Source of the DNA: a virus
Taxonomy: Duplodnaviria > Heunggongvirae > Uroviricota > Caudoviricetes
Length of the DNA stretch: 7,344 bases
IMG/VR virus record: IMGVR_UViG_2703718843_000005
Strand: one strand, 5' to 3'
Numbering within the stretch: position 1 is the first letter of the stretch; each line of letters starts with the position of its first letter. The notes beneath the pieces were generated by a model. That model did not search any database and was not told the origin of the DNA. It worked only from the letters and a program-made list of their open reading frames with translations. Both the position numbers and the translations under genes were made by a program. Shown here one piece after another: positions 1 through 7,344 of this stretch.

Positions 1-184
1 GATTCCCGGGGCGGTTCAGTTCTTTATTAGTGGAAGAATCCGGACCGTACTTCTTTATCCAGGCATAAAGGCTGTGGGTGGTGATATCGAGACGTGTTGC
101 AACGCTGGCAACAGAATAACCGCGATCAACAACCTGTTTGACTGCTTCAGTTTTAAACTCTTCGGGATAACGCTTACCGCTCAT
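1..184 (-). CDS. IS3-family transposase OrfA, N-terminal fragment (helix-turn-helix region); partial and possibly interrupted after codon 55
   Basis: Minus-strand ATG at 184-182 translates to MSGKRYPEEFKTEAVKQVVDRGYSVASVATRLDITTHSLYAWIKKYGPDSSTNKE..., which I recognise as an IS3-family OrfA N-terminus. No stop inside the window, so it is absent from the ORF track. Confidence 0.6.
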   Translation of the reverse strand, partial: MSGKRYPEEFKTEAVKQVVDRGYSVASVATRLDITTHSLYAWIKKYGPDSSTNKELNRPGN

Positions 185-247
185 GGGCACCTCTCTTTAA
201 GCCATCTTAAATGACTCTGAGGTGTCTGTTAAACCCGTGGCGATTCA
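1..247 (-). mobile_element. IS3-family insertion sequence terminal portion (partial, runs off the left edge); element end at nt 247, with a second IS3-type terminus-like sequence at nt 1-18
   Basis: Read on the - strand from 247: TGAATCGCCACGGGTTTAAC..., a TG-initiated IS3-type terminal repeat, followed 64 nt later by an orfA-like start. Reverse complement of nt 1-18 is TGAACCGCCCCGGGAATC, resembling the canonical IS3-family terminus as I recall it. Confidence 0.6.
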
Positions 248-577
248 GTTTAAATCTGCATTCAGTCTGTCATTGGTATTTGCTTTCGCCGCTACGTTGC
301 AGAAAAGCTGACTGGGGTAGATGAAGTAGCCTTTAGTTTTGATGGCATCGTCTTTAATGTCATCAGTAATTACGCTGTCATCCAGTTTCGCATAACAGAT
401 ACTGTCATCACCGGCTTCAATATAGCTGGAAAAATTTTCGCTGATAAAACGGTAGAAAAGTGCGCCCAGAACGTATTGCTTAAAATCCCATCCATCGACC
501 GAACCCCTGACATCGTTAGCAATTTGCCAGATTTGACGATGAAGCTCTGCACGTTGTTGAATACTTGTCATTTTCAT
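245..577 (-). pseudogene. hsdM: Type I restriction-modification methyltransferase HsdM (EcoR124-like, type IC), N-terminal 110 codons only, truncated by the IS insertion
   Basis: Translation MKMTSIQQRAELHRQIWQIANDVRGSVDGWDFKQYVLGALFYRFISENF... matches my recollection of the EcoR124-family HsdM N-terminus. Full HsdM is over 500 aa; here the stop (TGA, nt 247-245 on the - strand) is supplied by the first three bases of the IS terminus. The SAM-binding and catalytic motifs are absent. Confidence 0.75.
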
Positions 578-1359: not shown

Positions 1360-1539
1360 ATGGCACGTAAATACAACAAATTGTCCCGTGAAGCGTTAAA
1401 GATGCTTCTTGATGGCGTGAGTCGCCGCGAGGTAAAGCAATACCTGGTTGGTAAGCAAATTGGAGCCAGGACTGCTATTGCTGTGTTATGCCGTCAGGAA
1501 ATGGTTGTGCTTAAACAGAGAATGCCGGGCAGCAGATAA
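1360..1539 (+). CDS. pdcA: PdcA (post-doc protein A), small basic protein of unknown function, about 59 aa
   Basis: Position directly after doc as in P1. The ORF track starts at 1339, overlapping the doc 3-prime end; ATG at 1360 is preferred because GGAG at 1347-1350 gives proper RBS spacing. The start is uncertain. Confidence 0.6.
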   Translation: MARKYNKLSREALKMLLDGVSRREVKQYLVGKQIGARTAIAVLCRQEMVVLKQRMPGSR

Positions 1540-2611: not shown

Positions 2612-2628
2612 GTTGCTCTAATGTATTG
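2612..2628 (+). promoter_or_regulatory. C1 repressor operator-like site upstream of lpa
   Basis: GTTGCTCTAATGTATTG matches the asymmetric P1 C1 operator consensus ATTGCTCTAATAAATTT at 13 of 17 positions, with a perfect 10-bp core TTGCTCTAAT. Lpa expression is known to be C1-repressed in P1. Confidence 0.6.
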
Positions 2629-4430: not shown

Positions 4431-5914
4431 TGGCCAGAAGTTGCGTAACGGACCCACGTTGGCGCGAGCTGGTGGCGCTATATCGTTATGACTGGATTGC
4501 GGCCGCTGATGTGTTGTTTGGGAAGACACCAACCTGGCAGCAGGATGAGATCATTGAGTCCACGCAGCAGGACGGCAGTTGGACAAGTGTGACCTCCGGC
4601 CATGGTACTGGTAAATCGGATATGACGAGTATCATTGCAATACTCTTCATCATGTTTTTCCCCGGCGCTCGCGTCATTCTGGTCGCTAACAAAAGACAGC
4701 AAGTCCTTGATGGTATTTTCAAATACATAAAGAGCAATTGGGCTACTGCTGTTAGCAGATTCCCGTGGTTGTCGAAGTATTTCATTCTTACAGAAACGTC
4801 TTTTTTTGAGGTGACTGGCAAGGGTGTTTGGACAATATTGATAAAGTCCTGTCGCCCCGGAAATGAGGAGGCGTTGGCTGGTGAACACGCCGATCATCTC
4901 TTGTATATCATCGACGAAGCGTCGGGTGTGAGTGATAAAGCATTCAGTGTGATAACAGGTGCGCTGACCGGTAAGGATAACCGTATTCTGCTTCTTTCCC
5001 AGCCTACGCGACCTTCAGGCTATTTCTACGATTCACACCACAGACTAGCTATTCGCCCGGGAAATCCTGATGGATTGTTTACTGCGATAATACTGAATAG
5101 TGAAGAATCTCCGCTTGTAGATGCAAAATTTATACGAGCAAAACTTGCGGAGTATGGCGGTCGTGATAACCCCATGTACATGATCAAAGTACGTGGTGAA
5201 TTTCCCAAATCTCAAGATGGCTTTCTTCTTGGTCGTGATGAGGTTGAGCGGGCGACGCGGCGAAAGGTCAAGATTGCCAAAGGATGGGGCTGGGTTGCAT
5301 GTGTTGACGTTGCTGGTGGCACAGGACGAGATAAGTCCGTTATTAATATCATGATGGTGTCCGGCCAGCGAAATAAACGCCGTGTAATCAACTATCGTAT
5401 GCTGGAATACACAGACGTTACAGAAACGCAGTTAGCCGCCAAGATTTTCGCAGAATGTAACCCAGAACGGTTCCCGAACATAACCATAGCTATTGATGGC
5501 GATGGCTTGGGGAAATCGACGGCTGATCTAATGTACGAACGCTATGGCATTACCGTCCAGCGTATCCGCTGGGGTAAAAAGATGCACAGCCGTGAAGATA
5601 AAAGCCTTTATTTCGATATGCGCGCTTTCGCGAATATTCAGGCGGCAGAAGCTGTAAAATCAGGGCGTATGAGGCTTGATAAGGGGGCTGCGACTATAGA
5701 GGAAGCATCAAAGATACCGGTAGGGATAAATTCCGCAGGTCAATGGAAGGTGATGTCAAAGGAAGATATGAAGAAAAAACTCAACCTGCACTCACCGGAC
5801 CATTGGGATACATATTGTTTCGCTATGTTGGCGAACTATGTTCCCCAAGATGAAGTGCTTAGCGTCGAAGACGAAGCGCAGGTTGATGAAGCTCTGGCAT
5901 GGCTTAATGAATAA
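4430..5914 (+). CDS. pacB: PacB, terminase large subunit (ATPase/nuclease), 494 aa
   Basis: 494-aa ORF with Walker A-like SGHGTGKS (about nt 4592-4615) and Walker B-like [10 protein letters not shown]; translationally coupled to pacA. Confidence 0.9.
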
Positions 5915-5938
5915 CTCATTAACCATGCCGGATGGAAA

Positions 5939-6790
5939 CTATTGCGCGCTTTCGGGGTTGTCGTTTACTGGCTGCCCCTTCTTAGTTTTGCGCCTGCGCG
6001 TAACTGATGCGGCTGATTTGACCTTTTTCTCTTCGCGAGTGATGGCAATTTGTTTTTTTACATTTTCAATATCTGCCAGGCGATATATTTTTGCCTGCGG
6101 CCAGCGGTCGCAGATGATCGGTTCTATAGAGTCATAAAGGCTAAATTTTGCTTTCTCAAATTCACCGTTGATGATGATTCCATCTCGGAGAGTTTCATCG
6201 CAGATAAACACGCCACATAGCGGCACATGGTAACTAACTGATTTGCCATCATTGTAGTTAGGGCTACTGGAAATGTAATGGACGCGCAGCATTGTTTCGC
6301 TAAAGCCGTGTACGCGCATACGGAATTTTTCATCCTCCGGGTACTGCTTCATTAGCTCTTTTGTTGCTTCCAGGTTCTCTATGTATTTCGCACTGTGCTC
6401 ATTGATCCCCGCGCTTTTTTGGATGCGAATGTCCTTATCAATCAGATGAATAATGCGGCCAGCGGTCATGTTGACGCTGTTCACAGCTTCTGTCTGATAA
6501 GTTGTAACCTTGCGCACACCGCGAAGGATGTTAGGCACTGGATATAAAATAGTCTTTGGGATATTGAGGTCTGGGTACTGTTCCAGTTCCCGCGCCATTA
6601 AAGTCCATTTATCAATTTCAGCCTGAATGCTGTCAGTTTCTTTGAACGGTAGAACGACAACCGGGCGTACAGGACGACCGTCGCTGGCTGTATCAACGTG
6701 TTGGGCGCGTGCAACAGCTTTTTTTAGAAAGAGATCCCTGAAGCTGACGAACTCCTGGTACAGTTGTTCGCCGTAGACATAATTTATCAT
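5939..6790 (-). CDS. c1: C1 repressor of lysogeny (P1 immC), 283 aa
   Basis: 283-aa product beginning MINYVYGEQLYQEFVSFRDLF..., matching P1 C1 from memory; strong RBS GGAGGAGG upstream on the - strand; convergent with pacB across a 24-bp gap. Confidence 0.9.
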   Translation of the reverse strand: MINYVYGEQLYQEFVSFRDLFLKKAVARAQHVDTASDGRPVRPVVVLPFKETDSIQAEIDKWTLMARELEQYPDLNIPKTILYPVPNILRGVRKVTTYQTEAVNSVNMTAGRIIHLIDKDIRIQKSAGINEHSAKYIENLEATKELMKQYPEDEKFRMRVHGFSETMLRVHYISSSPNYNDGKSVSYHVPLCGVFICDETLRDGIIINGEFEKAKFSLYDSIEPIICDRWPQAKIYRLADIENVKKQIAITREEKKVKSAASVTRRRKTKKGQPVNDNPESAQ

Positions 6791-6884
6791 TGATCCTCCT
6801 CCAGAATTGACATGGTCAATAACGCCCGGCTGAGAAAACCGGTCATTACTGACCTATATTATAGAGGGATCAAACAAAAATAAT

Positions 6885-6901
6885 AGATTTATTAGTGCAT
6901 T
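6885..6901 (-). promoter_or_regulatory. C1 operator-like site between coi and c1 (autoregulatory Op99-type region)
   Basis: Minus-strand AATGCACTAATAAATCT matches ATTGCTCTAATAAATTT at 14 of 17 positions. P1 c1 is known to be preceded by a cluster of C1 operators. Confidence 0.5.
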
Positions 6902-7110
6902 TATTGTGAGTCTAACTGGTTAGTTGCCATGAGATATTCGATTGTGTCAGTGAGGTCATCCAGGTCGTCTTGGGTGATGCGGTACTCCTGATTGGATATC
7001 TTTGAGTAGTGTTCAGCAATGGCGCGGGCTGCGTCGGTTTCGGCAGGGTCTACAGATAAAGCGTTAGAGCAATGTCTAACGTCGTCGATGGTTGGTTGAA
7101 TGAAAGCCAT
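6901..7110 (-). CDS. coi: Coi, C1 inactivator protein, 69 aa
   Basis: 69-aa ORF MAFIQPTIDDVRHCSNALSVDPAETDAARAIAEHYSKISNQEYRITQDDLDDLTDTIEYLMATNQLDSQ immediately upstream of c1 on the same strand, with GAGG RBS; matches P1 Coi from memory. Confidence 0.85.
   Translation of the reverse strand: MAFIQPTIDDVRHCSNALSVDPAETDAARAIAEHYSKISNQEYRITQDDLDDLTDTIEYLMATNQLDSQ
7057..7073 (-). promoter_or_regulatory. C1 operator-like sequence inside the 5-prime part of coi (candidate only)
   Basis: Minus-strand ATTGCTCTAACGCTTTA: perfect 10-bp core ATTGCTCTAA, 12 of 17 matches to consensus overall; lies within coi codons 13-18. Confidence 0.3.
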
Positions 7111-7229
7111 AATTATGCCTCACTGTATTGACAACACAGAGCCTGAAGCTCTGACCTACTGTTTCACCCATGATCCATGCTGGGGTAATCTAACAACATT
7201 GCGCTGTGTGTAAGATGAGCAATGCATAG

Positions 7230-7344
7230 GGAAGGTGCGAATAAGTTCCTGATATGAGATCATCATATTCATCCGGAGCGCATCCCAGAGGGACATCATG
7301 AGCCATCAACTCACCTTCGCCGATATAGTGAATTCAGCACTAAG
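7230..7344 (+). mobile_element. IS5-family insertion sequence, left end (partial, runs off the right edge)
   Basis: GGAAGGTGCGAATAAG at 7230-7245 matches the 16-bp IS5 terminal inverted repeat as I recall it; an InsH-like transposase start follows 68 nt later. Confidence 0.75.
7298..7344 (+). CDS. IS5-family transposase (InsH-like), N-terminal 15 codons, partial
   Basis: ATG at 7298 translates to MSHQLTFAD..., matching the IS5 InsH N-terminus (MSHQLTFADSEF...) for the first nine residues before diverging. Confidence 0.65.
   Translation, partial: MSHQLTFADIVNSAL

Follow-up and report, generated by a model that had tools for sequence, protein, structure and literature searches.

Operator-like sequences for the C1 repressor in the interval between coi and c1, and within coi itself, raise the question of which of them are genuine C1 sites and what a repressor bound there could do to the two genes. 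The stretch of DNA analysed here, referred to throughout as the window, comprises 7,344 nucleotides, and an initial annotation of it had pointed to three candidates: one that ends at the coi stop codon, one inside coi, and a weaker one beside the junction of an insertion sequence (IS). The results described below indicate, with a probability of roughly 0.9, that the operator-like sequences lie in the immC control region of a P1-like element and are C1 sites already mapped in P1. Oc1a and Oc1c are already known, their bases being given in the annotated genomes of P1 and P7, and little of the outcome is new. What the analysis yields is a correct map of the C1 sites for this variant, in which the real sites are placed and the IS-adjacent sequence is excluded; the same map shows an IS5-family insertion that cuts coi off from its natural promoter-operator unit.

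The Window and Its Closest Relatives

Identity of the window to P1 is 96.5%, and to the P1-like phages RCS47 and phi456 it is 98.1-98.4% over 5900-7344. Full-length matches with 100% identity are provided by several E. coli plasmids, e.g., NZ_CP081712 and CP057260 (pRHB31-C15_2). The latter plasmid is typed IncFIA/IncFIB, and its P1 genes, as far as its incomplete gene table goes, extend from phd to c8 and include an lxc-like “modulator protein,” the remainder being metabolic cargo; its immC region probably lies in a decayed P1 remnant. The window begins with the end of an IS3-family element in hsdM, followed by the genes phd-doc, pdcA, pdcB, lpa, pacA, and pacB, then by c1 and coi on the minus strand, and finally by the left end of an IS5-family element (Table 1). 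The gene for the cognate C1 repressor is thus carried by the same element as the operators. At the far end of the window (1-577), the end of the IS3-family element (orfA, minus strand, ending near 240) truncates the type I restriction-modification gene hsdM, of which only the first 110 codons remain (245-577, minus strand); a related plasmid without this IS carries hsdM intact.

Table 1. Features of the immC region in the window and the basis of their assignment.
Feature	Position	Strand	Sequence or elements	Basis
c1, repressor, 283 aa	5939-6790	-		ORF; 99% identical to P1 C1; annotated as C1 in matching records
Pc1 (former P99a), c1 promoter	6858-6887	-	-35 at 6882-6887, TCTATT; -10 at 6858-6863, TATAAT	homology to AF234172 94150-94179
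Oc1b, weak inverted half-site	6874-6890	+	ACAAAAATAATAGATTT	positional homology to AF234172 94166-94182
Oc1a (former Op99a)	6885-6901	-	AATGCACTAATAAATCT	sequence and position identical to protein_bind feature AF234172 94177-94193
coi, C1 inactivator, 69 aa	6901-7110	-		ORF; 97-100% identical to annotated Coi proteins
Oc1c (former Op99c)	7057-7073	-	ATTGCTCTAACGCTTTA	identical to AF234172 94349-94365 and to P7 Op(c1b)
imcB, small ORF overlapping the coi start	7076-7171	-		positional homology to AF234172 94368-94463; sequence identical to P1
imcA 3′ remnant, cut by the IS	7190-7229	-		P1 imcA, AF234172 94482-94595, corresponds to window 7190-7303; homology ends at 7229
Chance partial match	7207-7223	-	ATTGCTCATCTTACACA	9/17 to consensus; no operator annotation
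Left end of IS5-family element (ISKpn26)	7230-7344	+		annotated ISKpn26-family transposase in identical plasmids

Discrimination of C1 Sites From Chance Matches

Op99-type operators upstream of c1 were first mapped in the late 1980s. The C1 operator is a 17-bp asymmetric site, and the consensus used here, ATTGCTCTAATAAATTT, is the one quoted for C1 operators in a recent paper (PMC8546580). The operator set was taken from the 20 C1 operator features in the annotated P1 genome AF234172; T8-A9-A10 is common to all 19 full-length annotated operators, and the near-invariant core can be written G4 C5. C7 T8 A9 A10. A position weight matrix was built from 17 annotated P1 operators, with Oc1a, Oc1b, and Oc1c excluded, and was used to scan the window, the P1 genome, and 2000 random sequences. 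In a search of the window for the consensus with up to three mismatches, two sites were found against an expectation of 0.02.

The site at 6885-6901 scores 22.6 bits and ranks first among 14,656 positions scored in the window, with 0.0005 such sites expected per random window, and it has every core position of the consensus. The site at 7057-7073 scores 11.0 bits and ranks fourth, a level that is marginal when taken alone (0.45 expected per random window), but for its exact 10-mer core, ATTGCTCTAA, the chance expectation is just 0.014 per window. The sequence at 7207-7223 scores 0.07 bits and ranks 34th, with about 40 equal or better matches expected per 7.3 kb; ATTGCTC, the 7-mer with which the consensus starts, is expected 0.9 times per window and occurs also at 4732. 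On the basis of these matrix scores and of the chance expectations for the 10-mer and the 7-mer, the first two sites stand above chance, whereas the third is at chance level.

The mapped operators of P1 give the same division. Because the P1 alignment contains no indels here, the window coordinate equals the P1-locus coordinate plus 5599. The P1 record AF234172 annotates Oc1ab (former Op99a/Op99ab), Oc1c, Oc1d (former Op99d) at P1coi upstream of imcA, and Oc1e (former Op99e) near lox; Op99a and Op99c fall exactly on 6885-6901 and 7057-7073, and no operator feature falls on 7207-7223. In P7, full operators are annotated at both the Oc1a and the Oc1c positions. The initial annotation had described the first site as a 14/17 match ending at the coi stop codon and the second as a perfect core within coi codons 13-18, and both descriptions are borne out: the match of the first is indeed 14/17, its last base is the first base (T) of the stop codon, and the second is P1 Op99c.

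Natural Variation and a Distant Relative

Sequence conservation was surveyed in 84 P1-like loci, 4 from genome contigs and 80 from a viral collection, all at 99% or above. Oc1a is invariant in 83 of them. Across these loci, all three sites and their flanks are near-invariant, and conservation cannot separate operators from neutral sequence, because even the rejected sequence at 7207-7223 hardly varies.

The sole informative distant relative is Cronobacter phage JK004, in which C1 is 77% and Coi 56% identical. Its equivalent of Op99a, at the coi stop codon, scores 24.2 bits, and its Op99d- and Op99e-like sites score 25.0 and 25.5 bits, respectively, with the arrangement and orientations as expected. 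Codons 13-18 of its coi read ATTATTCTAACGATTTG, which scores 7.2 bits and has lost G4 and C5. The roughly 560 bp of JK004 that separate coi from its Op99d-like operator bear no resemblance to imcA or imcB and include a stretch that looks like a tRNA, GTAGCTCAATTTGTAGAGC...GGTTCGAGTCC, at about 1615-1740 of the JK004 locus.

Oc1ab and the Promoter of c1

The operator inventory of the initial annotation was right about Op99a but missed the Oc1b half-site that overlaps it. In P1, Oc1b reads ACGAAAATAATAGATTT, one base apart from the window (ACAAAAA... in the window, ACGAAAA... in P1). It matches the consensus at 10/17 positions and scores -1.0 bits; since this match is poor, its status as an operator is taken solely from the P1 annotation. 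Oc1a and the inverted Oc1b form a bivalent geometry in which the two sites overlap by 6 bp (6885-6890) and cover the -35 element of Pc1. The TATAAT element of Pc1 is conserved, and the -35 element and the spacer lie beneath Oc1ab. A strict promoter consensus scan did not call Pc1, because its -35 element is poor. From the P1 annotation and this geometry, putative binding of C1 to the bivalent Oc1ab would shut off its own promoter, namely by autoregulation, since Oc1ab covers both the -35 element and the spacer. According to a published summary, P1coi is the only source of Coi, whereas C1 arises from both P1coi and Pc1, and both promoters are repressed by C1 (PMC8546580).

A strong hairpin is found in the c1 leader at 6814-6854 (minus strand), between the Pc1 -10 element and the c1 ribosome-binding site. 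It occurs as two alleles, the window/RCS47 type in 45 of the 84 loci and the P1/P7 type in 39, which differ at about 20 of 41 bases between identical flanks. The folding energies of the two alleles are -27.7 kcal/mol (z -3.9) and -34.6 kcal/mol (z -6.0); six base pairs are changed in both partners, and the share of cells that pair is 92.6%, as against 25-51% once the partners are slid. The corresponding place in JK004 is also occupied by a hairpin, whose sequence is unrelated. An Rfam search of the whole window returned no match, and P1 carries no annotation at this hairpin. Because it would form at the 5′ end of the RNA made from Pc1, the hairpin could influence mRNA stability or serve as a processing site.

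The Sequence Beside the IS and the Displaced coi Promoter Unit

The inverted repeat of the IS, GGAAGGTGCGAATAAG, starts at 7230, the transposase ATG is at 7288, and the target ATAG occupies 7226-7229. The imcA remnant left by the insertion is annotated in RCS47 as “imcA, part 2.” In LT883139, two tandem ISKpn26 copies are located at the same base, with the ATAG duplication flanking the pair, and beyond them Op99d and Op99e are again intact. In CP057260, where the entire window occupies 7643-14986, an ISKpn26-dmsABC-ISKpn26 block (14872-22641) is inserted in imcA, and directly past this block come the rest of imcA, Op99d, Op99e, loxP, cra, and cre. Op99d is intact there as ATTGCTCTAATAAATTA (22765-22781, 25.5 bits), and Op99e is at 22848-22864. 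In P1 coordinates, the start of Op99d (Oc1d) with P1coi (former P99d) lies 120 bp past the point of IS insertion, and in CP057260 this unit is 7.8 kb further from coi. Op99d is embedded in P1coi in the form TTGACA-ATTGCTCTAATAAATTA-TAG, and the annotation of P1 places P2coi, together with a LexA box, at positions 41-68. The ISKpn26-flanked block also carries dmsD and a gene for a 4Fe-4S protein, and the arrangement in RCS47 is related.

This arrangement bears directly on the sequence at 7207-7223, which had been put forward as a weaker operator-like site and as a possible remnant of the native upstream operator. Its place was given correctly, in that it ends 6 bp before the IS, but it is very improbable that it is a genuine weak C1 site or such a remnant. 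It does contain the first seven bases of the consensus, and it is conserved in 81 of the 84 loci, as is all the adjoining sequence. On the other hand, its score is at chance level and its positions 8-10 are ATC rather than the TAA of the operators; the same sequence stands unchanged inside the intact imcA of P1 and P7, where no operator is annotated; and the IS junction is a clean 4-bp target at which no operator sequence has been lost. Since Op99d is intact beyond the IS block in a plasmid identical to the window, the native operator has been displaced and not degraded, which refutes the reading of 7207-7223 as a remnant.

The upstream control unit, consisting of P1coi with Op99d, Op99e, and the LexA-controlled P2coi, has been separated from coi by the ISKpn26 insertion in imcA. 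The IS junction is present in about 78 plasmid records, compared with 707 Coi-encoding records, and in 3 of the 84 loci from the genome and viral collections. One may speculate, with considerable doubt, that this lineage has been rewired, such that coi is deprived of P1coi and P2coi, the anti-repressor Coi is either not expressed or depends on stray transcription from the IS, c1 is expressed only from the self-repressed Pc1, and Oc1c is the sole intervening C1 site, the whole forming a “locked” immunity cassette. If this were true, a “locked” repressor module on IncF plasmids that lack the rest of the phage could bar incoming P1-like phages. The junction is also relevant to whether such P1-like elements remain inducible.

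Possible Roles of Oc1c Inside coi

Oc1c covers coi codons 13-18, cAT TGC TCT AAC GCT TTA, which encode H-C-S-N-A-L of Coi. It matches the consensus at 12/17 positions, the first 10 bases being perfect and the 3′ half divergent, and it is the lowest-scoring monovalent operator of P1 (leave-one-out score, 10.5 bits). A consensus scan found no promoter-like site anywhere in 6700-7344, a range that takes in Oc1c, the interval from coi to the IS, and the initial 115 bp of the IS. The P1 annotation likewise has no promoter at Oc1c, and the P1 record says of the operator only that it “controls expression of c1.”

Most likely, Oc1c would play an auxiliary part by looping to the bivalent Oc1ab, which would strengthen autoregulation; this is the preferred mechanism. 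C1-mediated looping between the bivalent Op99ab and upstream monovalent operators was reportedly described by Heinzel et al. in 1994. A full-text literature search found nothing on Op99-type operators or C1-mediated looping, and the statements made here on the function of Op99c draw on GenBank notes. In addition, Oc1c may hinder read-through from the upstream coi promoters. The state of the site in JK004 suggests a role that is auxiliary rather than essential, and the contribution of Oc1c may be small or dispensable, because its score is low and its equivalent in JK004 is degraded.

Other roles have to be weighed against looping. In line with the block to elongation suggested in the initial annotation, C1 bound inside coi may act mainly as a roadblock that stops RNA polymerase arriving from the upstream promoters and so limits both full-length coi and read-through c1 transcripts. 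Repressor sites that stop elongation are known from the repressor of mycobacteriophage L5, and Oc1c, which has no associated promoter, lies 37 bp into coi, where the DNA is transcribed. Moreover, the coi-c1 operon is transcribed from P1coi through Oc1c (PMC8546580). A roadblock is therefore a possible explanation, albeit a tentative one: P1coi is already directly repressed at Op99d, so that a second block at Oc1c would add little in the lysogen; the P1 record ties Oc1c to the control of c1, not of coi; and the site is the weakest operator by score, with a degraded equivalent in JK004. A further view is that Oc1c has little or no function and that a weak match is simply kept by the coding sequence for H-C-S-N-A-L. 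The number of sites of this score expected in random sequence of 7.3 kb agrees with such a view, as do the JK004 codons, which encode N-Y-S-N-D-L and change the core to ATTATTCTAA, in a phage whose other three operators are near-perfect. However, an absence of function is unlikely, given how seldom the exact core is expected by chance, the origin of the operator name (Op99c) in the original mapping, and the independent annotation of the site in P1 and P7.

The initial annotation had also raised the idea that C1 at this intragenic operator blocks the translation of coi. Except that the site falls among the first 18 codons, nothing speaks for this idea, and it can hardly be entertained, because C1 is a DNA-binding repressor that acts on double-stranded operator DNA (PMC8546580; established knowledge). 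At the level of the mRNA, the only candidate for a hairpin or terminator-like element overlapping Oc1c, a 7-bp hairpin at 7062-7081, is not significant (-7.2 kcal/mol, z -1.5).

Operator-Like Sites Elsewhere in the Window and in P1

The scans also returned sites outside the coi-c1 interval. Inside pacB, at 5126-5142 (minus strand), the sequence TTTGCTCGTATAAATTT matches the consensus at 14/17 positions and scores 14.3 bits (P about 0.10 per random window). P1 has an identical sequence at 92418-92434 without operator annotation, and the site is probably non-functional because it lacks the T8-A9 of all 19 full-length operators. Upstream of lpa, Olpa (former Op94; 2612-2628, plus strand) reads GTTGCTCTAATGTATTG in the window, with G at position 1 where P1 has A; this change, which occurs in no annotated P1 operator, lowers the score from 19.3 to 14.5 bits.

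In the P1 genome AF234172, two unannotated sequences score like real operators: ATTGCTATAATTATTTG at 1485-1501 (plus strand, 17.3 bits), just upstream of c8, and ATTGCCCTAATGTATTT at 17166-17182 (plus strand, 16.7 bits), near the darB/prt divergent region. The number of C1 operators is given as 22 in a recent paper (PMC8546580), compared with the 20 annotated in the P1 record. Omat, at 2628-2645 of the same genome, is annotated on the minus strand with 18 bases, whereas the consensus-like CATGCACTAATAAATAT reads on the plus strand at 2628-2644.

Comparison With Known C1-Controlled Regions

The closest parallel to the bivalent site of the window is Oc1ab at Pc1 of P1 itself, with which it shares the sequence and position of Oc1a, the 6-bp overlap with Oc1b, and the TATAAT -10 element; the window differs by the one base in Oc1b and by the other leader allele downstream of Pc1. 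A similar design is seen in P1 Obanab (former Op72ab) at the ban promoters, where inverted 17-bp sites also overlap by 6 bp over a promoter. Both halves of Op72 are strong, however (17/17 and 15/17), whereas Oc1ab has only one strong half (14/17 and 10/17). Oc1c has the same 17 bases in the same coi codons as P1 Oc1c and P7 Op(c1b), without any difference in the site itself. By contrast, its context differs from that in P1, in that the IS has moved away the upstream promoters that would feed transcription through the site. The Oc1d/P1coi unit of P1 is intact in the plasmid that contains the window, although it lies outside the window, and it is unrelated to the sequence at 7207-7223. Finally, the immC regions of Escherichia phages RCS47 and phi456 share two traits with the window, namely an IS5-family element inserted in imcA at the identical base and the c1 leader allele. 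Nevertheless, the window is not identical to these phages, and its exact matches are IncF-type plasmids that have only part of the P1 genome.
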